From positions 175,692 to 239,691 of the IMG/VR virus record IMGVR_UViG_3300020576_002947: 64,000 nt of DNA. The stretch is one strand, 5' to 3'. Below, piece after piece: positions 1 through 41,874 of this stretch. Both the position numbers and the translations under genes were made by a program. The stretch comes from a virus (taxonomy: Duplodnaviria; Caudoviricetes). The stretch's first letter is position 1, and every line of letters starts with the position of its first letter. A model generated the notes under the pieces. The model ran no database searches, was not told where the DNA came from, and saw only the letters and a list, made by a program, of their open reading frames with translations.

Positions 1-1971
1 AATAGAAAGGGTTTAATGGACTACGCAAAGAATCTATTAAACAGGGCCTTAAATGAGAACGACAAAGAAGCAGAGATTAAATTTAAAAGACTAGTCACTG
101 GTGGGTTTATGAGGTCTTATGCAGGACAAAGTTTTGAAAGAAAATTCAATGCAGCTGTTGCATCAGTAGCAGGAGAACTAGCACACCAAACGACACTAAC
201 TGTTCAACCAGGTGGAGGAGTAGGTTTAGGTATAAATCAAAATTCTGATGTATGGAGCAGAGGTTCTATTACTATAACAAACGAGTATGGTGATATTGTT
301 GATGAACGAGACTTAGCTGATGGTATTATTATAGCACAGAAGTGGTTAAACTTAAGAATAGGTAGTAAAAAATCAGGACCACTAAATGCTGCGGCAAGAG
401 CATTCCTCTACGATCCGACCAAACCATCGTCTGTTGCAGATAAAAGAGGTAGTAAAATATCTAGCCAGGCTATTGCTGGCGTAGAAATAAAAGCTACGGT
501 AGCTTACTTTATGCCAGATACTTTTCTTCAAGAACAGGGTGATGATCTTACTAAAAAGATTTTCAAAGGTAACGCAGATGAGTGGTTTGAGCACTTTTAT
601 TTAACACTGGCTGAAGACAAATCAGGTACTTACGAAGATCTATCCAATAAACAGAAGTTTCAGGGACAGGGCGAGCTTTTTCTTACCCCTGCAGGTGCAG
701 CTAAAGTTAAAGCTCAACAAAAACTTAAAGCTGGAAAACTGATTGAGTACGAAGGAATACCACCTATGAAAGATCAGTTAAGTAGAAAAGCCCAAATGTT
801 TTACGGCAAATGGTATTATGTTCTTAGCGAAGAAGAGTTAGTTTCTGACGCTAAACTTGTAAATACTGCTGGCTGGTTAAAAGCTATGCCAATAGGAATT
901 ACAACTCAGTATACCATGAATCCTACTGGTGGCGGTGCAAAGCAAAACATTGATATGATGATAAGTCTTGGTGAGGTTTTTGCTAAATCCACAGGAATTA
1001 ATCAACTACTTATCCACCATGCCAATGAGCTAGGATTAACGTCAGAAGAAGTTAAAACCAAAATGGAAAAACATAGGGCTAACTTCCAAAAAGCTGTTAG
1101 CACTGGTGATGATAAAGCCTTAAAAGGTCATATTACTGCAATGCTTGAGGACTTTGGATTAATGAAAGAAGAGGTAGAAGAAATAGATGAACAAGGGGTA
1201 GTAAGAAAAGCATCAGCTTGGGTTTTTGGCAAGCGTGATGAACGGGGTAATGCTGCGTTAGCGGATACCACAGTAATCTCACTTACAAATGTTGCAGAAC
1301 ACCTAGTAGCAAGAGAAACTTGGGATGAGAACTTGCAACGCTTAGTTATAAAAGGTGCTGAGTCAACCCAAGTTATGAAAGGAGGTTTAATGAGCCAGGA
1401 TGTAATCAATAAAATCTTTGGTGATGGTGCTGTTAAAGCATTTGACCTTTTCTCAGTACTTGGACGTGATGGTGAGGAAGGTTTAATAAAGAGCTTCGCA
1501 AGAGAGCTTAATCCTGGTGTGGTAACACTTACTGATAATATGATTGCACAGGCACGGCAAACACTGCAGGTTGGGTTTGTTGCAGTTGCTCAGCAGGAGT
1601 ACACGGGAGCTGCGGAAAAGGCTACTGAGCACCTAAGATCGCAGCTAGGCCTATTAATGGATGCTAGACTTGAAATTCTTGATGCTATTAGTGGGGGTCA
1701 GATTATACAGGGCTTAGGTAGTATCAAAAAAGAAACTCACCAGCTACAAGCAATAGCCCATAGCATAGGCCTAGCAAGTCAAGCACAAAAACTTGGTACT
1801 ATAGGTAAAGAATTAGAGGGCAAATCTGAAAACATGCTCCACTATCTAATGAAGAGTACTCCTGCTAATGGTAAGCTAGCAATAGCTATGGCCGCCACAG
1901 CAGCAACTGCTACAGCCTTTGCGATGAGAGGAAGAGTACAGGCTAAAAGAGAAGAAGCTCGTACCAGGTAG
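1..1971 (+). CDS. C-terminal part of a large protein with RNA polymerase beta-like (DPBB-B) motifs; candidate virion RNAP, probably 5'-truncated by the window
   Basis: Frame is open from base 1 (aat aga aag ggt tta ATG). Motifs GQGELFLTPAG, AKLVNTAGWLKAM and NIDMMISLGEV align in order with GGQMFMTSEG, PKILSPIGLKNM and PDFLLSLKEI of ORF 35845-38247. Confidence 0.5.
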   Translation, partial: NRKGLMDYAKNLLNRALNENDKEAEIKFKRLVTGGFMRSYAGQSFERKFNAAVASVAGELAHQTTLTVQPGGGVGLGINQNSDVWSRGSITITNEYGDIVDERDLADGIIIAQKWLNLRIGSKKSGPLNAAARAFLYDPTKPSSVADKRGSKISSQAIAGVEIKATVAYFMPDTFLQEQGDDLTKKIFKGNADEWFEHFYLTLAEDKSGTYEDLSNKQKFQGQGELFLTPAGAAKVKAQQKLKAGKLIEYEGIPPMKDQLSRKAQMFYGKWYYVLSEEELVSDAKLVNTAGWLKAMPIGITTQYTMNPTGGGAKQNIDMMISLGEVFAKSTGINQLLIHHANELGLTSEEVKTKMEKHRANFQKAVSTGDDKALKGHITAMLEDFGLMKEEVEEIDEQGVVRKASAWVFGKRDERGNAALADTTVISLTNVAEHLVARETWDENLQRLVIKGAESTQVMKGGLMSQDVINKIFGDGAVKAFDLFSVLGRDGEEGLIKSFARELNPGVVTLTDNMIAQARQTLQVGFVAVAQQEYTGAAEKATEHLRSQLGLLMDARLEILDAISGGQIIQGLGSIKKETHQLQAIAHSIGLASQAQKLGTIGKELEGKSENMLHYLMKSTPANGKLAIAMAATAATATAFAMRGRVQAKREEARTR

Positions 1972-18945: not shown

Positions 18946-19555
18946 TTACACACCGCCAGTAGGAGCTAGAACATCAACTGGAATAACAGTATAAGGTGTT
19001 CTGTCAATATAACCCATAAACTTATCTCCTACATACATAGAAGCTAGCTCAGGATATTTAATACGAAGCAGATCAAACAAAGACAACGCAGAGTATTCAT
19101 GCTCAAGCTCCACAGAAATATCCATAATAAACTTCAATGATTCCAGGTTTGCATCACTCAAATTCCTCAAGTGCTCAAGAACAGTACTTAAGCCCGTATT
19201 ACTCATCATCTCCACAGTTACACTCACAAGAATCACAGCTACAGTTATCTTCTATCATACCCTTAAACTGATCCTGATACTCCTCCCAATCCATCAACTT
19301 AAACTCCTCAATAATATCATTGTCATTAGCATAGGCAACTAGTACTTGTCCCTGTGTAATAAGATAGCCATTAATAAAACCTAGAACAGATGCCCACCCA
19401 TGAGGATCAGCTTGAACAGTAGGATGATCTTGCATACCATCACCTAAATAAACTTTCCCAAACAAGAAGTTACTAAAGGCCATAGGATTAATAGCGTTGA
19501 CACTTTCCAAATACTTCAAAAAATCAGCATTCATATAGAGTAATGTAGCTCCCAA
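18946..19555 (-). CDS. two hypothetical proteins (18946-19236, 19199-19555)
   Basis: Overlapping ORFs; second has an acidic Cys-rich tail CSCDSCECNC. Confidence 0.6.
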
Positions 19556-20574
19556 TCCTTATGTGATTTTCTGTACCCATGAACGACCTTAGTAATAGCA
19601 GAAGGCTTAACACCTGCCAACCTACAGAAATCAGCAATCTTAAAACAACTAACGATCTCACCGGTAACAGTATTCTTAAAAGAAATCTTAGACTGATTAT
19701 CTAATGAATATCCTTTGTACGATTTAATCTGACCGTTAATTAAAAGACTTAACCTCTTACTAGGAATACTATACTTTTTTGAAAACTCTGAAACTGAATT
19801 AGCTTCATACACAATACCATCAGCATCAACTAATCGAACAACTTTAGAATATTTCTTTGGTTTATTTGGTGACAAAGTGTAGCCCTTATATGAAACTTCT
19901 CTTCTAGTAACCATAGAATAAAAAGAAGAGTGGTTTAGATTATTATCTCTGCAAAACTGAGCTATATTTGTAAGAATGATTTCATTGCCCTCAGGATCAT
20001 ATACAGTAACAGTTCTACCTATAGGTGTCTTAGGCTTTATCTCTTTAGGTATCGTATTAGGAACCTCACCTAACCTATACCAACCTTTATAAAACTTCTT
20101 ATTACCCCCTAGAACTTTTTGAACATCTTTATAGCCAGGAAGACTATACTCTTTACAAAATTTAGCTATATTAGAAAATTCTACAATAGTACCATCAATA
20201 TGCTGAAGAGTTTTAATTTTTAGAGGAATTGAAATTTTTTCCTGTCTTTTTACTCTTTGTTTCCTTAGTAGTAAAGGACTCTCATAAAAAGTTTGATAAT
20301 AGTTCTCAAGATTAGTAAGATCTTCTACAGGACATGAGGCTAGTAATTCGAAAGAAAAATCTTCCCTTCCAAAAAGACTATGAGACTTATTTAGTTCTAC
20401 TATAGTGTGTCTGTTATAGTGAGCATAGACCATGTGCTGCGATATACGCTGTCTTACATCTTTAGAAGATCCTACATAGTATTGTCCTGTAGAAATAATA
20501 TTAATCTTATAAACACCAGAGCCTTTATTATTATCTCGAAACTCATTGTATGTTAGAGATTTATTGTAAACCAT
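19531..20574 (-). CDS. GIY-YIG homing endonuclease with repeated NUMOD-like DNA-binding modules
   Basis: GVYKI...YYVGSS..R..H nuclease motif followed by four ~50-aa repeats ending YKGW/YKGY/HKDW. Confidence 0.88.
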   Translation of the reverse strand: MVYNKSLTYNEFRDNNKGSGVYKINIISTGQYYVGSSKDVRQRISQHMVYAHYNRHTIVELNKSHSLFGREDFSFELLASCPVEDLTNLENYYQTFYESPLLLRKQRVKRQEKISIPLKIKTLQHIDGTIVEFSNIAKFCKEYSLPGYKDVQKVLGGNKKFYKGWYRLGEVPNTIPKEIKPKTPIGRTVTVYDPEGNEIILTNIAQFCRDNNLNHSSFYSMVTRREVSYKGYTLSPNKPKKYSKVVRLVDADGIVYEANSVSEFSKKYSIPSKRLSLLINGQIKSYKGYSLDNQSKISFKNTVTGEIVSCFKIADFCRLAGVKPSAITKVVHGYRKSHKDWELHYSI

Positions 20575-20670
20575 ATTAATAATGTAAGTCGCATTTTAGC
20601 TTTTTATGACCTTAGACTTTTTATTTATTAACTGTAAGTATGAAAATGGGGGTATTAACTATATATATAA

Positions 20671-20711
20671 GGGGGTATATCTCATTTTATACCCCGGGGT
20701 CAAAAAGGCCC
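20671..20711 (+). promoter_or_regulatory. hairpin pair at strand switch; first copy of GGGYC-loop-GGCCY motif
   Basis: ggggtata...tatacccc then gggtc-aaaaa-ggccc just before SD GGAG and ATG 20725. Confidence 0.45.
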
Positions 20712-20724
20712 ACTTGGAGAAAAC

Positions 20725-20973
20725 ATGAAAAACATTCTGATCGTCGTTTCATTCATCATCGTCTCAGTCATCATCATGACTGGACTCTTCTCATTCTTCA
20801 GCGGCGTTGCTCAGAAATCAGCAGCGTCGAAGCAGCTTATCCTTTGTCAGGATAAGTTGAATCATGGCGGAGTGCGATACATGGACGAGAAGCCCTCATG
20901 TGGCAATCTCGTTATTGTTGTGCGTGAGAATGACCATGTGGGTATGCCCATGTGGGCTGCTCACATGAAGTAG
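20725..20973 (+). CDS. small protein with N-terminal TM/signal segment
   Basis: GGAG SD, hydrophobic N-terminus. Confidence 0.7.
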   Translation: MKNILIVVSFIIVSVIIMTGLFSFFSGVAQKSAASKQLILCQDKLNHGGVRYMDEKPSCGNLVIVVRENDHVGMPMWAAHMK

Positions 20974-20979
20974 TTCAAT

Positions 20980-21049
20980 AAGGGTAGTACTGTAATAGTA
21001 TTACCCTTTAATTTTACTGTAGACTACTAGGGCCAAACAAGGCCTACTG
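20980..21049 (+). promoter_or_regulatory. terminator hairpin + candidate hairpin promoter, copy 2
   Basis: aagggtagtact-gtaa-tagtattaccctt then tagactactaGGGCCaaacaaGGCCTactg. Confidence 0.55.
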
Positions 21050-21085
21050 TTATAAGGTACAGTATAACTATCTTAAGAGTACACT

Positions 21086-21508
21086 ATGCAACTCACTCTC
21101 AACAGCAGCATCACTACTCTCCTCGGAGAGGTCTCTTTCGTCAACGCTGATTACTGTGTCAAGTCCTTTGATGACATGACCAATGTGATCCGAATGTGTG
21201 TGTGGCTTGGTGAATCCAGGCTTGACAAGAACTATGTCAGCAGAAGGACCATGACCCTGTCCCAGGCCTCTGATTGGGACACTCTTAGTGCAGCATGGTC
21301 AATCCTTGAAGCTGCAAAGAAGCAGTACATGGCAGAGCTTCCTGTGTGGAGCACTGCTGCAATGGTTTCTGCTACGGTAGAGAACATTGAGGAGATCGTT
21401 GTTCTCCAGTGGCAGATCCGCTGCTGGATGGACAAGGTGTGGGAAGCAGAAAGTAATCTGAGGGCTTCGGCCTTGAATAAGCTTCTCAGTATGGAGGCTT
21501 GGATCTGA
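21086..21508 (+). CDS. hypothetical early protein
   Basis: 140-aa ORF between repeated intergenic modules. Confidence 0.75.
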   Translation: MQLTLNSSITTLLGEVSFVNADYCVKSFDDMTNVIRMCVWLGESRLDKNYVSRRTMTLSQASDWDTLSAAWSILEAAKKQYMAELPVWSTAAMVSATVENIEEIVVLQWQIRCWMDKVWEAESNLRASALNKLLSMEAWI

Positions 21509-21510
21509 GT

Positions 21511-21584
21511 AATAAGGGTAGTATCAGTAATGGTACTACCCTTATTATTTATTATAGTCTATATGGGCTAAATAAAGCCTATAG
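21511..21584 (+). promoter_or_regulatory. terminator hairpin + candidate hairpin promoter, copy 3
   Basis: aataagggtagtat...gtactacccttatt then tagtctatatGGGCTaaataaAGCCTatag. Confidence 0.55.
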
Positions 21585-21610
21585 TTTGATAAGGTTCTAG
21601 TGAAAAACCT

Positions 21611-22159
21611 TTGTCAATGGAGAACATGATGAAAATCAAGCTCAAAAGCATCAACGCAGAAATGACCCTCACTGAGGGTCCTCAACTGAGGATCTTGGCA
21701 GGTGGGACGACGAAGAGTGAGGGTCTTCCCGCTCTTCTTGAACTCAAGAGGTGGTCAGAATACCTCGTCTCAACTCTGGGGGAAGAGCCCTTGGACTTGA
21801 TCAAGGAAGATTTGAACAGTGTTAATTCGTTGCTTCATGCAGCGATTAACATGTTGATGGCCCCTTAAAACAACCAAGTTGTCTTTGATCCTTTCCAATT
21901 AAAAGAAAGGTGTCCACTGGAGAAGAGGATGAAACAGATCAAACTTGAATCAAACAACGTCACCATGACTCTCACTGCTGAGAACCTCGTCGTTCTCAAC
22001 AACGGCGGAAGCTCCCGATACCTTCGAAGTGAGGACGCTCTTGGCGTTCTCATCGACTGGGTTGATTACCTTGTCGAACTGATCCCCGCCGATCCTATTG
22101 TGGTGAAGGCAGATCTGAGAAGAGTTCTTTCCCTCGTGAAAGAGTTCACTCACGTCTGA
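21611..22159 (+). CDS. two tandem paralogous hypothetical proteins (21611-21868, 21929-22159)
   Basis: Shared IKL.S.N..MTLT and W..YLV..I/L...P...K.DL patterns. Confidence 0.7.
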
Positions 22160-22169
22160 GTAATAATTA

Positions 22170-22436
22170 GTGTACAGTGTCTATAACTGGGTAGCGTGTA
22201 ACTCGCTTAATCTTCTGGAGAAAGAAATGAAAAAGAACAAGTTCTTTTCCGAGGCTTTGGCCTCTCTCGTCGTCGCAGTCTTGGTTGGCACGGGCTGCTT
22301 CTTCCTCACGTTGTGGGGACTTGACCTCTTCTGGAATGGGGCTTGGGATATGGATGTCCTGAACGCCATTGCTCTCTTCAGTGCGGTGTCGTTCGGAGTT
22401 ATCTCCGGTATGCTGCGCTGGAATGTGAAGAGGTAA
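22170..22436 (+). CDS. two-TM membrane protein
   Basis: Two hydrophobic segments; likely start MKKNK after GGAG. Confidence 0.7.
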   Translation: MYSVYNWVACNSLNLLEKEMKKNKFFSEALASLVVAVLVGTGCFFLTLWGLDLFWNGAWDMDVLNAIALFSAVSFGVISGMLRWNVKR

Positions 22437-22443
22437 TCAAATT

Positions 22444-22509
22444 GGGGCTGAGAGAAATCTTGGCCCCTTTTAATTTATAATAGTCTATAGGGGCTATTAA
22501 GCCTACTAG
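22444..22509 (+). promoter_or_regulatory. terminator hairpin + candidate hairpin promoter, copy 4
   Basis: ggggctgaga-gaaa-tcttggcccc then tagtctatagGGGCTattaAGCCTactag. Confidence 0.55.
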
Positions 22510-22625
22510 TCGAGCCAGTTAACGACTTAAGAATAATATACTGGTTTCTGTACTTTCCTAGCTTCTTGAAGCTTCTACTAGGAACAGAATAAAACGTCGT
22601 ACAAGAACTGTCCCCATGGAGTAAC

Positions 22626-23698
22626 ATGAAACTGTTCATGAACCCGATCTGGGCTTATCTGGCCCATTCCACTCTCCAGCATCTGGGCTGGAACAATCAG
22701 ACCGCTTCGGTGGTCAGCGTCCCTTCGACCGTCAAGGTCACTGACAGGAAGCAGATGGAGGCTGCATCCTCTCGTCTGCACCAGAACCATAGTCTGATGC
22801 AGAAATCAGCAGCTCTTGAGGCCAAGCACGGCTTCAGGGCTGCTTGTGCAGCGTCCAGGATCGAGATTTCGGGTCTCGATGCCAATGCTGAGCGCAAGGA
22901 GTTCGTCCTTGTTCTCGGCAAGGCTCTGGGTAGCTTCTTTGCTGCTCCTACTCTCACTGCTGGTCAGATGATTCTGGCTGCAGTGGCCGGACTTGTGTGG
23001 CTTCCTCGATTCGTTCGGGAAGTCCTCGCCAAGGTTCGCCTCTTGGTTGGCAAGATGATTCTTGCTGCCAAGAAGGCAGAAGCCATCGCCCAGGCTACCT
23101 ACGTGGCCGAAGTCAAGGCAGCTAGGGTGGCTGCAGCAGAGATGGTTACAGAAGCCATCAGGAGGTGGGCCACTCCGGCTAAGAAGGTTAAGCAGGCCAA
23201 GTAAGGGATTTAATTCCCACGACTGCGGATAGGATAATTAAAATGTCCGATCCTAAGTTGGTTGAGCTTCAGGCAGTTACTAAGGCTGCTTGGGAAGCTT
23301 ATAAGGCTGCATTGTCGGCTGAGAAGACTTACCGCAAGGAAGTTGGACAGGCTGCTGCTGTGGCATGGAAGGCTGAGAGAGCCCAGCTCAATGAGACCGA
23401 GAAGGCTCTTATTGATGAGCTCACTACTGTGCTGGAGAATTCCTTCGCCCAGTGGAGAATGGCTAAGAAGACTGAGTTTGCACAGTGGAAGGCAGACTTG
23501 GCTTTGTCTGATGCCATGAAGACAGCAATTCCACCCAAACCTAAGATGGTGTGGGAAGTAGAGACTGTCGAAGGTGTTAAGCCCTCGACACTCTTGGCGG
23601 CTGCAGGCCAGGTGATTGCTAAGCACAATGAGGCTAAGATCACCAAAGGTCTTGAGCCACTGAAGGTTTCTGCTAGGATCAAGAAGGAGGCTAACTAA
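22626..23698 (+). CDS. two Ala/Lys-rich hypothetical proteins (22626-23204, 23243-23698)
   Basis: SD-preceded ORFs with consistent codon usage. Confidence 0.75.
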
Positions 23699-23844
23699 TG
23701 TTGGCCGTGTTCCTGCTGCTGGTAGGGTTCGGAATGATTGGTTATGGAGCATTCCTCCAGACCATCAATGAGATCAAGAATTCCTGAGATTGTTGCGGCT
23801 ATTTGCGTAGTCGTAGTTCTCTTGGGAGTGTTGTGGAGATAACC

Positions 23845-25098
23845 ATGAATCAATTCGAGATTCAAGCACAGAAGATCGTCAACAAGGTCTTCCCTAAGGT
23901 CATTTGTGGTGAGAAGGCCTCTGATCATCTGAGACAGATCATCGAGACCAAGCTGGCTAATGGGAGGCAAGTTACTCTGAGCATCAAACACTCAGATCAT
24001 CAGAAGGCTCTCAGTAGCATTACTGGAGTTCCCTGTGTTGAGGGCTTCAGAATCAAGGACCGCCAGGTTTGGGTCGGCTATGAAGTTAAGCAAAGGCCTT
24101 TTACAGATGCAGATTGTTCTGCACCAAGACTTCGCGTGCATTCTGATGAAGATGGGTATCCTTACGTCTATCGTCTGGAGTGGGTAACTGTGAATCAGAA
24201 GCTTCTTCCTGAGATGCTGGAGGTGGTAACTGATTCAGCTTCTAAAGGACAGAAGACAAGGTTTGGTGTTGTCCAGTCAGGGATGAAGGCTAAGTCGGCT
24301 AACATGGTCGAGTATCATGTTGATACCAAGCACATGGAACGCCTGGGTATTGATATCTTCAGGGATCTGATGACAGGTCCTGGTGGGATGTATTTGGTCT
24401 ACAAATGGTCTCTGGTTAACCAAATGCTTCAAAAGTTTGAGGCTCATTTGGCAATCCATGAGGATCATGAGGCTATCATGAACCACCCAGAACTGCCTGA
24501 CTTTCGAAGAAAGATTAGGGCAATGCTTGGAAAGATGGGCAAGCCTGCGTTTATTTATCACAGGATGTCAATTGGATCGGCTAGTCATAGAGGTATTGAC
24601 CATGCCGACTCACTTGACTACCTGACACTCAATCAAGTGAAGACTATTCCAACGTTTGAGAGAATGTTGGAGATTGGTGCTCAGATCGAAGCTGATGAAA
24701 AGGCTAGGAGAGAGGCATTGAGATACAAGGCTCCTGCATCACCACCTAAAATGTGGGAAGACGATAGCCTGAAGGTGAAACTTCTTCGCCCAGGAATTGA
24801 GTTCATTGTCGAAGGAAGGGAAATGCACCACTGTGTTGGCGGATACAGTGGATTTAACTCCATCATTCTCGGCGTTGAGATTTATGGTGTTCGTGCCACA
24901 GTTGAGCTGAATCGTACAGGAGACATTCGCCAACTAAGAGGCGTCTGCAACGAAGGCCTTCCAATGGAAAGCCAATTCCTTTTCCGAGACTGGCTTAAGA
25001 ACAATCTCAAAGAAGTTCTTGAAACAGTGGAGAATGAGGACTACTACAGTAGTGATCACACTGCTATCGTTGTAGACAACGACCCATTCGCCTGGTAA
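23845..25098 (+). CDS. PcfJ-like domain protein
   Basis: EGREMHHCVGGY...RATVE...QLRGVCN; start placed at ATG after GGAG. Confidence 0.8.
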   Translation: MNQFEIQAQKIVNKVFPKVICGEKASDHLRQIIETKLANGRQVTLSIKHSDHQKALSSITGVPCVEGFRIKDRQVWVGYEVKQRPFTDADCSAPRLRVHSDEDGYPYVYRLEWVTVNQKLLPEMLEVVTDSASKGQKTRFGVVQSGMKAKSANMVEYHVDTKHMERLGIDIFRDLMTGPGGMYLVYKWSLVNQMLQKFEAHLAIHEDHEAIMNHPELPDFRRKIRAMLGKMGKPAFIYHRMSIGSASHRGIDHADSLDYLTLNQVKTIPTFERMLEIGAQIEADEKARREALRYKAPASPPKMWEDDSLKVKLLRPGIEFIVEGREMHHCVGGYSGFNSIILGVEIYGVRATVELNRTGDIRQLRGVCNEGLPMESQFLFRDWLKNNLKEVLETVENEDYYSSDHTAIVVDNDPFAW

Positions 25099-25127
25099 GG
25101 CTATACGACTAAGAACTGGAGTAAAAA

Positions 25128-25681
25128 ATGAACTATCACATGTTCAATGAGCCATCTCTTAAGGAGATGAACAGCTTCCGCCATATGGTGGATGAGGATG
25201 CAATGCTGGCTGAGCACGCAGCCTATGACTCTCACGATGGTGTGACTTTCGGATGCAATGCTGATCCGCAAGAGCCTACCACAGACGAGTGGAATGATGT
25301 CCACACACAGAGAGTTGTTGCAAGAGCACTCGCTGCTCAAAGACATCCTTACATGGCCTACCTCAGAGCCACAGGGCCAGCGTAATGAGAGACTTGTTCT
25401 TTGACTCAGTCCTGGCTGAAAGAAGGGCTACTAAAAGCCTTCTTACGTCAGAAGAACTAGAAGACATTAAGCTACAGAAGGAGGCTGTGGCTGCTCTCAG
25501 AGCAAGAAGAAGACTTCTTCGACAGAGAGAAAAGGAGACTAAAGCGTTGGAAGATGCTTTGGAACTCCTTGATGCTAAGGATGCAATGATTGCGTCTATG
25601 GGCATTCACGGATGGAGGTTTAGACATCTTGGATATGAGGTTGAGGTGTCTGAGAAAGGGTATAGCTTGAAATGGAATTAA
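25128..25681 (+). CDS. two hypothetical proteins (25128-25385, 25385-25681)
   Basis: Translationally coupled ORFs (TAATG). Confidence 0.7.
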
Positions 25682-25834
25682 AACTGCAAGCTGATCGGAA
25701 GCTCTTGGTCACCAAGCTTAAGACTCTTCAGTCGAAAGGCAAGTGGAAAGACTGGGATGCTATCAACAGGACGACCCAGAAGATCAATGAGATCGACTGG
25801 GAACTCCAGCGACTAAGTAAGAAGGGGGAAGATA

Positions 25835-26833
25835 ATGAAAGTTAAGACTCCGTGTGGTCGAGAGGTCACTATCGTCAACATCAAGGACACTCCAAACTGG
25901 AAGGAGTTGTATCCTAATGGTGTGTACTGTGGCAGACCTCCTAAGAGTCAGCCTGGTATGCACCTTGGGAACTTGTTTACCCATTTGCAGCTGGATGATC
26001 CGTCAAGGACTATCTGGGTGCCAACCAGGGAAGTTGCTGTCCAAGCCTTTGAGAGATGGCTCAAGGGTGACTACGATCCTATGTGGCCGCTTGCTAAGTT
26101 GGCTGCTGAGGAACAACGCCGTCTATGGATTCTGAAGGTGATCCCTAAGATCCAGGAGAAGGCTGAGGCATTGGCATGTTGGTGTGATCCACTAATGTGC
26201 CACACTGAGGTACTTGCTACCTTTGTGCCCACGACAGCCCCTACGACTACCACACAGGTGTTCTACACTGGTGTTGGTACCAGAGGCAGGCAAGGCTTCG
26301 ATGGTGTAAGAAGACTTCCTCAACATATGACAAACCTTATTCGTAGGGTGTCAAGATGGAAGAGGGATAAAGGAGAGATCCTCAGATCAGGTCATGCTGT
26401 TGGATCTGATCTAGCATTTGAGATGGACACTCCTGTTTGGCAGAAGGAGATCTATTTGCCAACAGAGGTATTCAACAAGGCCAGTGCATCTACCCCAGGA
26501 TGTATTGTGCCTGATGAAGAACAGTTGGAAGAAGCCTTTGACTTCCTTCAGAGGATCGGTGTGCTTGAACCAAGACATGCTGCTAAACTAAAGTCAGGAA
26601 CAGGCTTTGGTTGGAGAGCCCATGCTAGGAACCTATTCCAGGTTATTGGTGTGGACATCGAGAATCCACGTCCATCCAAATCTCTGTACTGCTACACAGA
26701 GGATGGAGAAGAAGTGGGTGGAACTCGTACGGCTATATTGGTCGCACGACACTTTGATGTCAAGGTGATTAACCTAGGTAATAAGGATGTTGCTGCCAAA
26801 TGTGGTCATTGGCTGGAGAAGAATGGATACTAA
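25835..26833 (+). CDS. DUF4326 domain fused to SLOG/DprA-like domain
   Basis: N-half VYCGRP..LGNLF..LACWCDPLMCHTEVL; Thr-rich linker; C-half YTGVGTR, LRSGHAVGSDLAFE, ARN..QVIG, GGTRTAI. Confidence 0.8.
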   Translation: MKVKTPCGREVTIVNIKDTPNWKELYPNGVYCGRPPKSQPGMHLGNLFTHLQLDDPSRTIWVPTREVAVQAFERWLKGDYDPMWPLAKLAAEEQRRLWILKVIPKIQEKAEALACWCDPLMCHTEVLATFVPTTAPTTTTQVFYTGVGTRGRQGFDGVRRLPQHMTNLIRRVSRWKRDKGEILRSGHAVGSDLAFEMDTPVWQKEIYLPTEVFNKASASTPGCIVPDEEQLEEAFDFLQRIGVLEPRHAAKLKSGTGFGWRAHARNLFQVIGVDIENPRPSKSLYCYTEDGEEVGGTRTAILVARHFDVKVINLGNKDVAAKCGHWLEKNGY

Positions 26834-27257
26834 TTTCATGGTCTTGTTTGAAGAGGCGTTTCTAATCTTCAAAGAGTTTGACAAAAGTGGTGACTATGAG
26901 GCTGAGATGTATGTGACCTGTGAAGATACATCTCACTTCAATGTATCTTTTGACAGTTTGACAAACAAAGTAGTCAGTGTTTCGATTGCTTTAAACCCAA
27001 TCCAAATTCAATCTGATTCAGACAACTATTTAATTCCCAGAGATGAGATTTTCTGGTGTACCTTCTATCATGAGATGGGTCACTACCATCAAGTGATGAA
27101 TGGCACATACTTTTCAAAGATCAGGGAAGTTGAAGATGACCCTAAAGTATTACTTTGGCTTGAAGAGGACGCGTGGACTTTTTACCCTAAAGCTAACAAA
27201 AGGTTTGTAGCTTATGCCTTAAGAGGCTACCGTCAATTAGCAGGCTACTATATTTGA
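26823..27257 (+). CDS. HExxH metallopeptidase-like protein
   Basis: FYHEMGHY...LEEDAW. Confidence 0.7.
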   Translation: MDTNFMVLFEEAFLIFKEFDKSGDYEAEMYVTCEDTSHFNVSFDSLTNKVVSVSIALNPIQIQSDSDNYLIPRDEIFWCTFYHEMGHYHQVMNGTYFSKIREVEDDPKVLLWLEEDAWTFYPKANKRFVAYALRGYRQLAGYYI

Positions 27258-27341
27258 GGACTACTGTGACTACAGAACAAATCCTTCGGTAGGGGGAACA
27301 TTCGGAGTCAGGAGCCCACAGGAGTCCTGCAAAGAGTTACC

Positions 27342-28928
27342 ATGGAAATCAGCACAGTTTCACAGAACATCATCGACGGCCTCAAGGCCATCAACGTCAC
27401 CCTGTCAGAGGTCAGGATTGAATTGCATCCTAACGATGCATTTGACAGCGCAGGAAAGCCCCAGCCGCATCTTCAGAGCCTCATCCTGGCAGGGTTCAGG
27501 AAGTTCGACATCTGCGAGTTTGAAGCAGATCAGAACAGAGCAAGCGGTGTCGGTCGCATCAACGACGGCATCAGAAAGTCCTGCATGGCTCACGCTCTCG
27601 CGTGGGGTAGCAATGCCCGAGAAGCAAAGGGACTTCTCACTTCGTTCGGACCTGACTTTTTGAGAACTGAGGTTCAGCGCTTGGTCAGGAACGGCATGAC
27701 CCCCGCCATGTTGCTTGCGGCAAGCCAGCCCAAGAAGGTGGCTTCTGCTTCAGCAGAGGTCGCTCTGGCCGATCTCGAATCCCTCTTCGAGTAGAGCGCT
27801 ATAGTTTGGGAAGGGCCCCCTCAAGGCCTTTCCCTTACTTCAGGACCTTCGCCTAAAGTTTAACCACCTGTCTCTCGTAAGCTTTGTTTTAAAAGCTGAA
27901 CAACTATCTGGGATTTATCCCCATGTCCGTCCGTTAAGAACAAAAGGCTATTATGGCTACTAAGAACGCAAACAACCCCACGTCAACCGCCGCTCCCATC
28001 AACACCGAAAAGGTCGGCCAGCCCGCCCAGGTCAACACTCCCAGCATTGAGGACCTCCAGGCCCTCGCTGGCGTGATGAAGAGCAACACCATCTCTTCAG
28101 AGAAGCCCAGGGTGGACTTCAAGCAATTGGGAGGCGATTTCGAAAGGAATCGAACTCCACTCTCTGAGCGCTTGGAACAGCTACCATTCCTGATCAGTGC
28201 TGGAATGGTCGTGGATGGCACCAGCACCGTATGGGGCAACTGGCATCTCCAGGCCCCCAGGCAGGAAGGCAGGACTCCGGTCCTCAGCTTCCACGTTCCA
28301 AGTGAGCGTGAAGTGACTTCCACTGTCAGGGGCAAGAAGCAGACCGTTCTCGAGACGGGCTATGACAGAGTCAAGGTCAGGATCACCGAAGAGGGCATCC
28401 TCGACAACTTGCTGGATCTGGATAGGTTGCCACACTTTGGCACCCTCGCCAGTGTGCTCTGTGACAGAGGGTCCATTGTGATCCTTTGGGAAGAGTAATT
28501 ATTAATTAAGTTATCACTAGGGAGGTCTTCAAGGGGCCTCCCACCAAAAGCCAATTGAGAGAACCAATATGAAGCGAAACTTTCTTGCCGCTGGCGTCGG
28601 AGCCTTGGCAGCCACTCTTGTCACTACTTCCGTCGGAGCCGTAAAGGCTTCTGGAAGAATGGCCGCTCAGATCCGGGACCAGTTCCAGGACACAACTGAA
28701 AGGGGGAGAAAGATCCAGTCCTATAAGGATTTGGACTTCCAGATCGAACAGGGAAACCTGGACCCCACCAAGCTCGAAAGAGCTAAGGACCTGCGCTCAA
28801 GGCTCGAGATCATTCTCTGGCCCAAGGCACAAACTCAGAGGAAGGATCATAGCGATATTGATTCATTCCTCTCAGAGATTGAGAGAGAATTCGACTTGAG
28901 CACAGAACCTGCTCAGGTCACCGACTAG
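27342..28928 (+). CDS. three GC-richer hypothetical proteins (27342-27794, 27953-28498, 28569-28928)
   Basis: ORFs separated by GC hairpins at ~27808-27834 and ~28519-28541. Confidence 0.75.
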
Positions 28929-29135
28929 GAGTTTCAGACTGCCCTTAACCAGGTAGCTGAGGAAGCGACCAATTAACCTTTAAGGGCATTGCCCATCTAA
29001 CCAGATTTAAAACTGTGTTAGGTGTGTAGTGCCCTTTTTAAATGCTGAAGCCTTAGCTTCTTGCTAGTTATACAATGATAAGGAAACTAGTAAGAGGTTA
29101 AGGCTTTTTTCCAGAAATCGCCTATATTAGTACGG

Positions 29136-29160
29136 GGGAGGGGCCCCTTTAGGGGAGGGG
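29136..29160. repeat. 25-nt G-rich intergenic repeat, copy 1
   Basis: gggaggggcccctttaggggagggg, identical at 33615-33639. Confidence 0.85.
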
Positions 29161-29182
29161 GTGAAACCCCCAGGAAAAAAGA

Positions 29183-32100: not shown

Positions 32101-33613
32101 CTAACATCCTATATCTTGATTGCAGAGTTATTGTTTATAGTAACAAACCTGCAATCATTGAGATCAATGATATCTATACTGATAGATGTTATAGTGTTCT
32201 TCATAACAAGTTTGTATCTCATCCTATCTTACCAGAGCCTTTGAACTTTAAAGACTTTCCTGAATTTAAGAAGAGACCTACTATCAATTCTACTGAACAT
32301 GCAATAGGACAATATAATATTAGTGATTTCCCAACTATCTTCTTAACAAGAAAATTCATTTTTAATCCTAGTATCCCTGACTTTGAAAAAGCAGTATTGA
32401 ATATGTTAGTATTCTAAACTAATGAACCCAAGCATTAACTTCTTACTTTGTGTTATTACTTCAATTGCTATTTGGATCTTTACTGCAATTCTTGCAGTTG
32501 TAAGTGCAACATTTTTTAAACCTGATGTTCTACATAAAGAACATTTTATTAAGTACATGAGATTTTCTATGGTACTTTGTCTTATAGATGTTATTCTAAT
32601 TTCTATCCTTTGTGTATACTTCATAATGCACACAAAATGACAATCATCCAGAGACCAGAATTTATTCTTAATCTTGAGAACATCTTTATCCTTAACGAAG
32701 TAGATGATAAAGTAACTCTTCATGTTCTCACTGCTGAAGGTCTTATTAAGAGATCATTCGATTATACTTTGGCAGACTTGCTATCATATGCACAAGTTAA
32801 TGCAAATCCTAATCCTACTATGGTGTATATTGAGGGGTACTTAATAACTCCTCTTAGTAATATTATTCTAATTAAAGACACCGGTGTTGGTATTGAAATT
32901 TTCTTTACTAATAAAGGAAATCCTATGCCACTCCCATTTAAAATAACTGATATTAAACTAATGAACTTTAATTGAGGACCATGGAAAGAATCAATCTTAA
33001 CTGCGAAACACATTTTTTATACCCAATCCTGAGAGAAGCTATGTATCGATATATGCTTAAGCAGAATTTGCTTAAGGTTACACCTATGAAGGAAATGAAT
33101 CATACTTTCTCTGAGGAGAAGGGTGCATTCTTTATTGAGACTCAAGGCTATGATATTAACTATACTCTCAAGATGTATGGAGATGAAATCTCTTTAGATC
33201 TTTGGGGCACAGTTGTTGATCAAATGACCTTTGATCTTAATGAAGAAAAGCTCCCATTTGAATGGGAAACTATTGTTTATAAATTCCTTAGCCAACCTCA
33301 TTATGTAGAACTTCCTAATAGTAAGAAAGTAATTACATCCTTGGCAACTAAAGCATTCCAACAGTATGCTGATGAACATGAAGGAACAGTTGAATATCTT
33401 CACTATTATGGTGACGATAAAAGCTGGATTATATTAAGTAACTTTGGCAAGATCTTTATTGATCCTAACAATGAAAAGGAACGTGTCATTGTTGTCAAAC
33501 CTTTTATTGATGAAAAGAAAGTAGTACGTTATCCTGATAAGGTATCGTACACTCCTGATATGTGGATTAATATGTTCTATAATATGATTAAAACAGTTAA
33601 TCAGCCTACATAA
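29183..33613 (+). CDS. cluster of AT-rich small hypothetical and membrane proteins (29183, 29475, 29708, 30326, 30632, 30868, 31116, 31355, 31890, 32422, ~32637, 32972)
   Basis: Coupled ORFs, many with 1-2 TM helices; 30632/30868/31116 look like tandem 2-TM paralogs. Confidence 0.65.
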
Positions 33614-33614
33614 T

Positions 33615-33639
33615 GGGAGGGGCCCCTTTAGGGGAGGGG
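33615..33639. repeat. 25-nt G-rich intergenic repeat, copy 2
   Basis: identical to 29136-29160. Confidence 0.85.
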
Positions 33640-33667
33640 CCCACTATTAAGTCCAAGGAACCAGAGC

Positions 33668-35431: not shown

Positions 35432-35854
35432 ATGGGTTACGCATTTTTAGGAAGCGCTTTCGTTTTATCTTGGCTGTTTGCCTATTTTGAATTGTTATTG
35501 GTTACCAAACTAAATCTTAAAGGCCTTGCCTTAAACCTTCCACTATTTGATTTCTTTTTCTCAATCCCTATCGCAATTTTGCTAGGTATTGGCTTTAATA
35601 TTAATGGTGCTGTAGCTGGAATGGCTATGACACTTGCATCATTCTGGACTCTGTTCTGGTATGCTCATTGGAAGCGTAAGGAATTCAACAGATTCTATGA
35701 TGGCAAGAAGCATAAGCTATGGAAATCTACGCTTGCAAAGGAACTCGACAAGATCAGGAATGATATTGAAGAGGGAACATTTATTGGTCAAATTTTAATA
35801 GATCAGCTTAAGGAAAAGGAAGCCAAGTTGAAGAAGGAGCTTAAGTGCAAGTAA
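35432..35854 (+). CDS. membrane protein
   Basis: Three hydrophobic segments. Confidence 0.65.
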   Translation: MGYAFLGSAFVLSWLFAYFELLLVTKLNLKGLALNLPLFDFFFSIPIAILLGIGFNINGAVAGMAMTLASFWTLFWYAHWKRKEFNRFYDGKKHKLWKSTLAKELDKIRNDIEEGTFIGQILIDQLKEKEAKLKKELKCK

Positions 35855-38247
35855 ATTATCAAGAGTATGAATGGTATGGACAACCTGTTGTCATTCCGTT
35901 CAGAGTTATTGGTGAGAAATCTGTTATTGGCAAGGATGGTAAAGTGTCAAACGTTAAGCAGATCAACGAAGGAATCAAAGCGGCAGCAGACCGTGAAGAT
36001 TTCCCTAAGTTGATTGATATGCTTGAGGACCAATACTTTAAGACATTGAGAATGGTCACTGGTATTCCTGTTAAAGGACACTATGGACCTGTCTTTACAT
36101 CTGCAGACATTGCACCTGAGTATTACTTCACAACTCCAGAAGGAGGAACAGTAGTTAATGAAGATCTTATGACTTCCAGAGCTGTTGACAGTGATGGAGA
36201 TCATGCTCTAAGATCTAATCTAAAAGATGCAAATGGAAAATACTTTAAGCATAGGGAAGCTATGTTTATTAAGTTTCCATTTACTAAGAAGGTTCCTGTT
36301 CTTAAGGAACTTCCTGGTAAGTATCCATATACAACTTTCACACCTGTCCCAGAGGACAAGGAAATCGTTATTACTGATATGTCTGAGAAGTACAATCTTG
36401 ATGCTCTAGTTGAAAAAGCTAAAGATGTTCTTGCTATGCCGCTTGTCGGACCAACTGACAACTACTTTGATTATAAGGAAGCAATGGCCGTTAAGGATCT
36501 TGATTCCTATCATATGAAAGTCCAACATCTGTTTGAAGACGAAGACAGATTTCTTGCTATGGAGGGAGATATGAAAAAGGTTCGCGGAGGGAAGATGGAG
36601 AAAGTCGAAATCCCCCGAAGGCGAAGCATTGGGACACTTCCTACATGTTGGATTTTGGGTATGGCTAGGGGCAAGTCCTATTCACTACTTCCAGAAATTA
36701 AAGATGCTATCTATATGATGAGGTATCTTGAAGGTATGGAATTTGAAACAGTCGAATCAGCGCTCTCTCGAAGAGACGATGAGGTGTTCCCCATTCCTAA
36801 GAAACTCGAGATCAATTCTAAAGGGCACGGCATTGTTCAAAGACTTATTGATCTCAAACTTCTAACCATTGAGAAGATTCCACATGCAGTCCCAGGACTG
36901 TTTGTATCTGTTATTAGATTGTATACTCCTAGTAAAGATTACAGAACTCTTCACCCAGTTGCTGTTACAGAAACTAAGAGAGACACTTCTGTTATGACTT
37001 ACTGTATCGTAGTATCACCAATCGTGGTTAACTATGATAATCAGGTTAAGATTGTTCCTATTGAGTACGCTCTTGAAGCTCATCTCAATTCAGTTATGAC
37101 ATTTATGCCACTATCAGGGGGCCATTGGCCTAGTCGATTGGATCATATCCACCAGAACCCTGTTAAGTCAGCTATGCTTGAGAAAGCTCTTAGAGAATTT
37201 CTCAGTAAGTATGGCTACTTCCTATATCATAATAAGACTATGAAGACAATGGCACTAGCCGTTGCTAAGAATAAGATTGCTGTCCATTTCCAAACTAAGA
37301 ATCCACATGAGAAAGCTGCTTTCATGAAAGAGCTGAACATCAAGCTTAAAGCTACCAAGCTGGCTATTGTTCCATGTGGTGGAAACAAGAAAGGAACTGA
37401 ACGTGCAAACTTCAGTATTTGTGATCCTGTAACATTCTCGCCATTGTATGCGGGCAAGTACGCTGATCCAAAGCGTTCATGTCAGATTGCTTCTCAGCTT
37501 GCTAACGCTGTACCCCTACCCAGAAAGGCTTGTCTTGTTATTACAGGACGACCAGAAGATGGGAAGGGCACTGGCGGTCAGATGTTTATGACATCAGAGG
37601 GCGCTGAACTAAGCAAACTATCTAACGTGTTTCTAAACTCATTGGTCTATCAGAAAGATGAGAATCATCAGCAACGAACAACATTCAGAAACTTTGCTGG
37701 AGAGGAATTTGAAGGCTGGCTTGGAGACCCTCAAGCGACTTCTGAAATCCCTAAAATCCTCAGCCCAATCGGACTGAAGAACATGGCTATGAGAATCTAT
37801 AATAAGATTCAAGTACAGCATAATGGATTTTGGTTTGAACCTGATTTCCTGTTATCTCTGAAAGAGATTGAGGATAAGGATGCTTGGAATTCTCTTGTTG
37901 AGCATGGTGTCGAGAGATCATTCATGAACAACAATGGAGAAATTATTCCATGCTTCATCGTTTTCATAAACCTATATCGTTCTACTAATGCTTCAGAATG
38001 TGTCAAACCAGGTAAGAAGACCAGAGTGGTCTCAGGCATGGAAGCACATGCAATTAAGGAAGTTCTTTTAAATCATAATCTTGAGATTCCAGAATCAGAG
38101 CCTGACATGGAATATCTTGAAGCTATCAGAAAGGCAGTAGCGCAGATCAGAGATATCTGCAACCTGCCATTGCCCAATGTACCGGACGGCTTGTGTGCTG
38201 TTCGGGGGGCGGCGGTGGGTTCGGCGGAGGGTGCTGTCCCCTTGTAG
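35845..38247 (+). CDS. candidate single-chain two-barrel RNA polymerase (800 aa)
   Basis: AVDSDGD (36187-36201) resembles NADFDGD; C-terminal K-x7-K, PDFLLS and SGMEAHA motifs resemble beta GDK..GNKG, PDI.LNP and GEMEVWA; GTG start after AAGGAG. Confidence 0.6.
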   Translation: MQVNYQEYEWYGQPVVIPFRVIGEKSVIGKDGKVSNVKQINEGIKAAADREDFPKLIDMLEDQYFKTLRMVTGIPVKGHYGPVFTSADIAPEYYFTTPEGGTVVNEDLMTSRAVDSDGDHALRSNLKDANGKYFKHREAMFIKFPFTKKVPVLKELPGKYPYTTFTPVPEDKEIVITDMSEKYNLDALVEKAKDVLAMPLVGPTDNYFDYKEAMAVKDLDSYHMKVQHLFEDEDRFLAMEGDMKKVRGGKMEKVEIPRRRSIGTLPTCWILGMARGKSYSLLPEIKDAIYMMRYLEGMEFETVESALSRRDDEVFPIPKKLEINSKGHGIVQRLIDLKLLTIEKIPHAVPGLFVSVIRLYTPSKDYRTLHPVAVTETKRDTSVMTYCIVVSPIVVNYDNQVKIVPIEYALEAHLNSVMTFMPLSGGHWPSRLDHIHQNPVKSAMLEKALREFLSKYGYFLYHNKTMKTMALAVAKNKIAVHFQTKNPHEKAAFMKELNIKLKATKLAIVPCGGNKKGTERANFSICDPVTFSPLYAGKYADPKRSCQIASQLANAVPLPRKACLVITGRPEDGKGTGGQMFMTSEGAELSKLSNVFLNSLVYQKDENHQQRTTFRNFAGEEFEGWLGDPQATSEIPKILSPIGLKNMAMRIYNKIQVQHNGFWFEPDFLLSLKEIEDKDAWNSLVEHGVERSFMNNNGEIIPCFIVFINLYRSTNASECVKPGKKTRVVSGMEAHAIKEVLLNHNLEIPESEPDMEYLEAIRKAVAQIRDICNLPLPNVPDGLCAVRGAAVGSAEGAVPL

Positions 38248-41564: not shown

Positions 41565-41874
41565 GGGCCTGTAGCTCAGTGGTTAGAGCACGCGGTTCAT
41601 CAAAGCTCCACACACTTTCCTTTTATTAGGTGTGTGATAGCAGGTGCCACAAGATTGGAAACTACTTGTGGGATCTCTCCTGTTCAGGAAAACCTAAGGA
41701 TCAATAAGGATAGATCTATGGCAATCGTGAGTACTTTGTAAAGAGTATGCAGAGACTGTACGGAGAGGGCCTAAACTCAGTAATGAGTACGGTCAAGAGA
41801 CAGTCCAGGGAGTCAGGAAACTGACACAAACCTGAACCGCATGGTCGTGGGTTCGATCCCCACCGGGCCCACCA
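41565..41874 (+). tRNA. trnI: tRNA-Ile2/Met (CAT) with group I intron; exons 41565-41600 and 41835-41874
   Basis: gggcctgtagctcagtggttagagca-cgcgg-ttCAT | aa-ccgca..ggttcgatcc..cgggcccACCA; body resembles tRNA-Ile. Confidence 0.9.
41601..41834 (+). mobile_element. group I intron (234 nt, no ORF)
   Basis: Exon ends in U, intron ends in G; P7 elements gcagagactgtac and aagagacagtcc. Confidence 0.88.

Follow-up and report, generated by a model that had tools for sequence, protein, structure and literature searches.

Three short, near-identical intergenic cassettes of 70 bases lie among small genes of a jumbo phage, in a stretch of 64,000 nucleotides (positions 175,692 to 239,691 of IMG/VR record IMGVR_UViG_3300020576_002947; hereafter the window) that forms the terminal portion of one 239,691-bp virus contig. 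Each cassette consists of a hairpin with a T-rich tail (hairpin 1), an AT-rich box and a second, G-initial hairpin (hairpin 2). We see about an even chance that the cassettes are composite elements, an intrinsic terminator joined to an early promoter, which double as recombination junctions. Hairpin 1 and its T-tract would then be an ordinary intrinsic terminator closing the preceding small gene. The AT-rich box overlapping the T-tract (TTTA-N3-TAG-N-CTA) would be the recognition element of an early promoter, with transcription presumably starting at or just before the G-run, ~7 nt past the invariant T of a TAnnnT-like hexamer. Finally, GGGCY-loop-RGCCU in the mRNA would fold into a stem-loop at the 5' terminus, serving as a stabiliser or an initial transcribed element and not as an extruded DNA hairpin.

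The cassettes were located by regular-expression search and by direct reading. Both place TAG[AT]CTA-N2-3-GGGCY-loop-RGCCTA at 21020-21046, 21555-21581 and 22481-22505, in every case intergenic and on the plus strand. In all three, the initial G of GGGC follows the last C of hairpin 1 at a distance of 24 nt (21006/21030, 21541/21565 and 22467/22491), which confirms the modules and the fixed spacing that an earlier note on this DNA had described. The cassettes are oriented with the genes and lie 40-120 nt ahead of a Shine-Dalgarno (SD) sequence and ATG. Their parts, in window coordinates, are as follows.

20980-21008, plus strand: hairpin 1 of cassette 1, predicted intrinsic terminator after an 82-amino-acid (aa) gene (terminator scan, folding); stem AAGGGTAGTACT / AGTATTACCCTT, 12-13 pairs, loop GTAAT, T-rich tail TAATTTT
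21013-21033, plus strand: core box of cassette 1, TTTA-N3-TAG-N-CTA-N3-GGGC, candidate promoter (0 mismatches to the invariant core; alignment)
21030-21045, plus strand: hairpin 2 of cassette 1, GGGCC-AAACAA-GGCCT, then TACTG; 5 pairs including a basal G.U
21514-21543, plus strand: hairpin 1 of cassette 2, predicted terminator after a 140-aa gene, with a GTAA (GNRA-type) loop
21548-21568, plus strand: core box of cassette 2 (core mismatch scan, alignment)
21565-21580, plus strand: hairpin 2 of cassette 2, GGGCT-AAATAA-AGCCT, extendable to 7-8 pairs via AU.../...AU
22444-22467, plus strand: hairpin 1 of cassette 3, predicted terminator after a 69-aa gene, loop GAAA (terminator scan)
22474-22494, plus strand: core box of cassette 3, TATAAT then AGTCTATAGGGGC (core mismatch scan, alignment)
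22491-22504, plus strand: hairpin 2 of cassette 3, GGGCT-ATTA-AGCCT

Cassettes 1 and 2 are alike over almost their whole 75 nt, terminator stem included, whereas the hairpin 1 stem of cassette 3 is unrelated in sequence to both. Alignment of four distinct modules, the fourth from a relative described below, gives an invariant core of CCCTT-N4-TTTA-N3-TAG-N-CTA-N3-GGGC, followed by a hairpin of 4-5 pairs and then TAYWG. The cassette-specific portion is the ~45 nt 3' of hairpin 1.

Hairpin 1 was scored as an intrinsic terminator in all three cassettes, with a GC-containing stem and a T-run after a stop codon. Its stem takes three unrelated sequences, every one of which pairs completely; the loops are GNRA-type (GAAA, GTAA), and the tail is rich in T. 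The stem covariation was read by eye from the alignment, in which MAFFT sets the stems out of register. Terminators in the AAGGG...CCCTT style recur without the box elsewhere on both arms of the genome. Because unrelated stems all pair and the same style is used genome-wide without the box, hairpin 1 is, as judged from its letters, a generic RNA intrinsic terminator.

Across the 239,691-bp genome the full motif has three occurrences, and 40 third-order Markov genomes contain none, a test that is partly circular, as the pattern was derived from the three copies themselves. No further copy with 0-1 mismatches to the 14 invariant core bases exists genome-wide; sites with 2-3 core mismatches almost always fall in coding sequence, and the terminator-plus-hairpin context accompanies none of them. 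A scan of IMG/VR returned three chance matches lacking cassette context, scans of JGI metagenomes returned none and then one chance match inside a coding region, and the motif was not found on the (short) contigs bearing homologues of the phage RNA polymerase (RNAP) described below. No Rfam family was found within the cassettes, and a k-mer search for more intergenic motifs gave nothing cassette-related. The genome-wide scan proposed in the earlier note adds no copies to the three, but conservation in a relative, which it had also raised, is observed.

One genuine relative emerged: L020, a Logan contig of 7,245 bp whose run also holds a contig with an 87%-identical copy of a 1,552-aa phage protein discussed below; L021 and L022 proved to be identical strains that add no information (exact-cluster look-up, then contig look-ups). 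From 22440 onward, L020 and the window share 95-96% identity; upstream of that point L020 is mosaic. It carries cassette 3 unchanged, and precisely at that cassette's first base the two sequences, diverged until then, become 100% identical. Its orthologue of cassette 2, the fourth module, has an unrelated, fully paired terminator stem (AAGGGAAGA/TCTTCCCTT) and keeps both the 24-nt spacing and the invariants CCCTT, TTTA, TAG, CTA and GGGC. Compared with cassette 2, its T-tract carries two changes and its box a single one (T to C); the loop also differs, and the closing pair is T.G. Cassette 2 and its leader form a ~110-nt island of identity with L020, 88% overall and 100% from the 3' arm of the hairpin (GCC) through the SD. 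To the left of this island the genes are non-homologous (140 aa in the window, 314 aa in L020). To the right, L020 has a 237-aa gene absent from this genome, then a 79-aa orthologue (79% aa identity) of the window's 85-aa gene after cassette 2, and then a 75-aa gene with no counterpart here. With neighbours that are otherwise unrelated, the cassettes are the only shared stretches, and for that reason they serve as homologous-recombination junctions too, at which related phages exchange early-gene cassettes. The alternative offered in the earlier note, a recombination module between gene cassettes, is therefore supported, as similarity to L020 switches on and off exactly at the modules.

Searches for additional relatives yielded little: none were found via two neighbouring proteins in IMG/VR, word-index homologue searches returned only self or the one close relative, profile A1 (the family profile of the 800-aa RNAP described below) was too divergent for a locus scan, and the contig with the homologue of the 1,552-aa protein stops short of the early region. 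Two other features were noted in the comparison. A second recurring intergenic element, TTGTCTTTGAYCCTTTCC-loop-GAAAGG, stands just ahead of the SD and ATG of small genes, once in the window (21869-21928) and twice in L020 (1811-1864 and 2110-2166), and L020:5331-5819 holds an additional 162-aa gene between the counterparts of window positions 25384 and 25385.

The genomic setting of the cassettes was examined on the whole contig, which has 38% GC and a CheckV completeness of ~94%. A crude gene map shows two long divergent arms. The minus arm runs from ~196.3 kb down to 91.9 kb and carries structural genes, TerL and a GroEL with an intein; the plus arm runs from 196.4 kb to the contig end and then, after the wrap, on to 91.8 kb. 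The arms diverge at window 20575-20724, and the cassettes fall within the initial 1.8 kb of the plus arm. DNA similarity to 50,697 phage records was not found, and the best TerL identity is 24%, to an Acinetobacter jumbo phage, which gives no guide to the host. The phage is a jumbo phage (240 kb) that is not N4-like, from a lineage with almost no relatives in public data. Three features frame the cassettes.

20626-20711, plus strand: strand-switch region before gene 1 (letters read, folds, repeat and k-mer searches)
20725-23204, plus strand: six small genes set apart by the cassettes (82, 140, 80-85, 76, 69 and 192 aa)
20725-29180, plus strand: GC-rich island opened by the cassettes (statistics of GC, of GC at third codon positions (GC3) and of SD use)

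The six small genes are all ORFans with no Pfam match and are candidate early or host-takeover genes. The strand switch contains, at 20626-20680 in divergent intergenic DNA, two tandem ~27-nt units of the form TATTAACT...GGGGG (TATTAACT...GGGGGTAT), then CTATATATATAA, a hairpin GGGGGTATA...TATACCCC, and GGGTC-AAAAA-GGCCC. The last of these (20697-20711) had been listed in the earlier note as a variant of the module; the GC hairpin is present, but the TTTA/TAG/CTA box is not. To judge by its letters, the region is cassette-like in style (a CTAYAW box, then a G-initial hairpin) and no cassette copy. These tandem units, where the cumulative GC skew is at its lowest, may be an origin or a pair of tandem promoters. 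The first gene of the minus arm, a GIY-YIG/NUMOD homing-endonuclease gene (19531-20574, minus strand), adjoins the strand switch.

No block of the genome is richer in GC than the island (8.4 kb, 45-53% GC), which extends from the strand switch to a hairpin cluster with a G-rich repeat of 25 nt. Its GC3 is 0.57 versus 0.27-0.31 elsewhere, and SD-like sequences occur in 57% of its genes versus 25-35% elsewhere. All island proteins tested are ORFans. The block holds either first-expressed genes tuned to host codon usage or foreign DNA. Other intergenic hairpins of the island, starting with a G-run and without a T-tail, often follow a CTAYAW-like box (for example at 20659, 27799, 28527 and 29122), and CTA lies within 10 nt of such hairpins in 6/16 cases versus ~13% elsewhere, a modest enrichment. 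The three cassettes may thus be the best-conserved representatives of a looser hairpin family. A G-rich exact repeat at 29122-29160 and 33605-33640, preceded by GCCTAYAT, likewise resembles the CTAYAW box and G-start hairpin of the cassettes.

Overall, we see somewhat less than an even chance that the cassettes are promoters read by a polymerase encoded by the phage, probably two-barrel and virion-delivered. Two genes bear on this.

35845-38247, plus strand: 800-aa single-chain two-barrel RNAP, candidate non-virion RNAP (nvRNAP)
1-1971, plus strand: C-terminal part of a 1,552-aa protein (genome 173004-177662), candidate virion RNAP (vRNAP)

For the 800-aa protein, 50 metagenomic homologues were recovered, among which the DxDGD motif (residues 115-119) is invariant. 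The DxDGD barrel is N-terminal and a beta-type module C-terminal. An AlphaFold2 model has a predicted local distance difference test (pLDDT) score of 85, and all of the top 50 Foldseek matches to its C-terminal half are RNAP second-largest (beta-type) subunits. Likewise, the top nine VIA-align matches of the model are second-largest subunits (Z 7.8-10.1), after which Z drops to 5.7; structural matches include the phiKZ and AR9 nvRNAPs. A tblastn search of the 50,697 phage records with this protein gave no match. The phage thus encodes at least one single-chain two-barrel RNAP of its own, from a poorly known family. The 1,552-aa gene is the lone plus-strand gene in the structural arm; its product has DNDGD near residue 240 in a region that aligns with the DxDGD region of the 800-aa protein, and is the second-best in-genome match of profile A1 (E = 0.036). 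It has no sequence match in PDB, an hhalign probability of 1% and a blank Atlas search, and the AlphaFold2 model of residues 130-1320 (pLDDT 31) is unusable. Split-RNAP candidates of 368 and 457 aa had no sequence matches in PDB, and a 3,499-aa open reading frame tried as an N4 virion polymerase was rejected as a Ser/Thr/Gly-rich repeat protein of the fibre type, with no Pfam or PHROG match.

The earlier note's first suggestion, an early promoter for the phage's own RNAP, is consistent with the position, orientation, uniqueness and conservation of the cassettes and with the 800-aa RNAP; the promoter function itself is what we infer. A phage polymerase is somewhat more likely than the host RNAP as reader, host sigma-70 RNAP being an unlikely one, and readings without a promoter take the rest.

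Phage-specific early promoters have precedents in jumbo phages with RNAPs of their own, in which a conserved ~10-nt AT-rich motif centred near -10 marks vRNAP early promoters and is detectable bioinformatically before early operons (PMC7598289). In P23-45, the vRNAP similarly uses a conserved AT-rich motif at pre-early genes beside the genome end (PMC10770324). This phage resembles phiKZ, AR9 and P23-45 in having its own two-barrel RNAP(s) and a short conserved AT-rich motif, recognisable from sequence alone, before presumably first-expressed genes near a genome landmark, and P23-45 also in its paired terminator signals. It differs in that its 800-aa protein belongs to a different single-chain family, accompanied by the unproven 1,552-aa candidate, and in that the motif occurs in three copies only and is followed by a conserved GC hairpin.

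A further comparison is with promoter-early stem-loop (PeSL) cassettes of T4-like phages (Arbiol et al. 2010, PMC2839356; Comeau et al. 2014, PMC4122927). As in PeSLs, a stem-loop terminator stands immediately 5' of what would here be the promoter, followed by an SD and start codon; the stems follow the pattern A2-4G3...C3T2-4; such elements cluster among small ORFan early genes; and they are located exactly at insertion/replacement boundaries between close relatives. However, PeSLs have full -35/-10 promoters, whereas the cassettes have no -35, no N17 spacing and only a TAnnnT hexamer. In the cassettes, moreover, the terminator and the G-run are only 24 nt apart, TAG-N-CTA is an additional conserved box, and a GC hairpin stands where transcription would start. 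In addition, there are three of them, compared with dozens of PeSLs, in a phage that encodes two-barrel RNAP(s) and is not demonstrably T4-like.

The rival that survives best takes this likeness at face value, with the cassettes as true PeSL-like elements, host sigma-70 early promoters fused to terminators, so that host RNAP would read the GC-rich, SD-rich island at a time when no phage machinery is yet present. The -10 element would be TAnnnT (TACTGT, TATTAT, TATAAT), with a start ~7 nt downstream at the G-run. The T, A and T at -12, -11 and -7 of this hexamer are invariant in 4/4 modules, the order of stem-loop, promoter, SD and ATG and the AAGGG...CCCTT stems match published PeSLs (PMC4122927), and the island's SD use (57% versus 25-35%) and GC3 (0.57 versus ~0.29) indicate a host-like expression style. 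Nevertheless, we regard this account as unlikely. The cassettes have no -35 element, its position being occupied by the terminator loop (GTAATA, GTAATG, GAAATC, GAAATA), and the TG extension is also absent. A consensus scan identified no promoter at the cassettes and no sigma-70 -35/-10 pair heading the plus arm, with the limit that the host, and hence its own consensus, is not identified; sigma-70-like sites number 13, versus 13.4 expected from shuffles. Moreover, a sigma-70 promoter leaves the TAG-N-CTA and GGGC invariants unexplained.

Slightly less likely again is an RNA-level intercistronic processing or stability element. Here, a single upstream promoter and leaky terminators would produce a long early transcript that is cut in the AU-rich strand between the hairpins by an RNase E-like or phage-encoded endonuclease, the products keeping hairpin 1 at the 3' end and hairpin 2 at the 5' end as protection. 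T7 early RNase III sites are a precedent for such processing. The segment between the two hairpins is indeed conserved, unpaired and AU-rich, GNRA loops and wobble pairs point to structure at the RNA level, and further G-initial intergenic hairpins without a T-run recur in the island. On the other hand, hairpin 1 and its T-tract together make a complete terminator of a kind that recurs genome-wide, a 14-base invariant box at fixed spacing exceeds the needs of RNase E, and no strong promoter for the whole unit is evident upstream of gene 1.

The structure of hairpin 2 bears on whether a DNA hairpin could be recognised, as in phage N4. The N4 vRNAP promoter has a 5-7-bp stem, a purine-centred 3-nt loop and exceptional stability, and is read by a giant T7-like vRNAP with contacts at -11, -10 and -8 after gyrase- and SSB-dependent extrusion (single-stranded DNA-binding protein, SSB) (PMC4496689). 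In a rival of this style, GGGCY/RGCC would extrude in supercoiled DNA and an injected RNAP would recognise the hairpin and start at a set distance downstream, in the conserved TAYWG(T). N4 likewise has three inverted-repeat promoters heading its early region, interspersed with terminators; the cassettes contain an inverted repeat, in which one pair is compensatory, and conservation extends 5-6 nt beyond the hairpin; and some two-barrel phage RNAPs, namely crAss-like gp66 (bioRxiv 10.1101/2020.03.07.982082) and the AR9 nvRNAP (PMC7598289), prefer single-stranded templates. However, the stem/loop geometry of N4 is unmatched in the cassettes, which have a 4-5-bp stem and a 4-6-nt loop in place of a 3-nt mini-hairpin loop. 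A giant T7-like vRNAP is probably absent, and the defined contacts and the extrusion of N4 have no evident counterpart. PF00940 and PF00562 had no match in the genome, and no N4-like or T7-like RNAP was found with Pfam, although the PF00940 control itself matched no genome.

As DNA, hairpin 2 reaches -3.3 to -3.7 kcal/mol on the plus strand and -1.4 to -3.4 kcal/mol on the template strand (the -1.4 being that of L020), with z-scores of -0.4 to -2.1 that lie within the range of shuffles. On the plus strand, it pairs throughout, with an invariant basal G.U and a closing pair of C-G, U-A or U.G. On the template strand, the G.T and T.G wobbles turn into C.A mismatches, at the basal pair and, in L020, also at the closing pair. 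Because the fold is weak as DNA and the wobbles pair only on the RNA-like strand, these observations argue for hairpin 2 acting at the RNA level, and not as an N4-type extruded template-strand hairpin. An RNA beginning at the A before the G-run would have hairpin 2 at its 5' terminus in 4/4 modules, although in cassette 3 an alternative pairing competes once upstream RNA is included in the fold. The earlier note's appeal to an N4-type mechanism is thus not sustained (the genome is not N4-like, and stem and loop sizes, DNA fold and wobbles all disagree), and we consider the N4-style promoter improbable. The earlier note's claim of compensatory stem changes holds in part: the exchange of a C-G for a T-A closing pair is real, but with four distinct sequences the covariation is indistinguishable from shuffles (250/500).

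Least probable is that the cassettes are non-functional duplication leftovers, or pure site-specific recombination sites with no role in expression, for although cassettes 1 and 2 are so alike, breakpoints coincide with the cassettes and a GIY-YIG endonuclease gene adjoins the strand switch, the flanking genes are not paralogous, the cassette persists beside three differing terminator stems at constant spacing, its orientation and SD+ATG distance count as constant (distance 40-120 nt), and it is 100% or 88% conserved in L020 where neighbouring coding DNA is diverged or replaced.

A 5'-terminal hairpin has a parallel in T7-group promoters, which give a 5' leader stem-loop, as in the T7 phi10 leader; a start at the G-run of the cassettes would yield a similar 5'-terminal hairpin. 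In cassette 3, CTATAGGG is identical to T7 positions -5 to +3. Upstream of -5, however, nothing resembles the T7 specificity region, and no T7-like RNAP was detected, with the limit of the PF00940 control given above.

Several points weigh against the terminator-promoter reading and its phage-encoded reader. We infer promoter activity and the start site, and also which polymerase is involved and what the RNA hairpin does. There are only three cassettes, and the first gene of the plus arm has none. The T-A-N3-T invariant is equally expected of a sigma-70 -10 element, the host-like features of the island (SD in 57% of genes, high GC3) would suit host machinery, and the AU-rich single strand between the two hairpins also resembles an RNase E-type processing site. 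The folding energy of hairpin 2 does not stand out (z ~0 to -2.8), and its covariation amounts to one pair in four distinct sequences. As for the polymerases, the 1,552-aa protein is only a candidate vRNAP, unproven as such, and the gene for the 800-aa RNAP is 15 kb further downstream, beyond the island and with no cassette ahead of it, so that a simple vRNAP-to-nvRNAP cascade is not evident.

Two observations concern other parts of the genome. TACATTA(T) occurs 12-18 nt 5' of many SD-less ATGs genome-wide (for example TACATTATTAATATG and TACATTATAAGTATG; sites at window 20586-20592, minus strand, and 47528, plus strand, and at L006:17601, minus strand), one of them directly after a terminator, and may represent a second class of promoter giving leaderless or very short-leader mRNAs. 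Window 41629-41827 contains a sub-threshold Rfam group I intron match (38 bits, E = 1e-6).

A further-reaching form of the terminator-promoter reading is that the cassettes are promoters of an uncharacterised single-chain two-barrel virion RNAP that recognises the AT-rich box together with a nucleic-acid hairpin at the start site. We consider this unlikely. If true, structure-assisted promoter recognition would have evolved independently of N4; expression of an island that differs in composition and is transcribed first would depend on it, and the promoters themselves would be the means by which the island's gene cassettes are exchanged. The coincidence of the cassettes with the GC3-rich island suggests that first-expressed genes may suit host translation before phage tRNAs and polymerases appear. 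In practical terms, the cassettes are three (four with L020) precisely defined candidate promoters that could serve directly as in vitro templates for orphan polymerases. Finally, the shuffling of early genes via shared regulatory cassettes, known in T4-like phages, operates in an unrelated jumbo phage.

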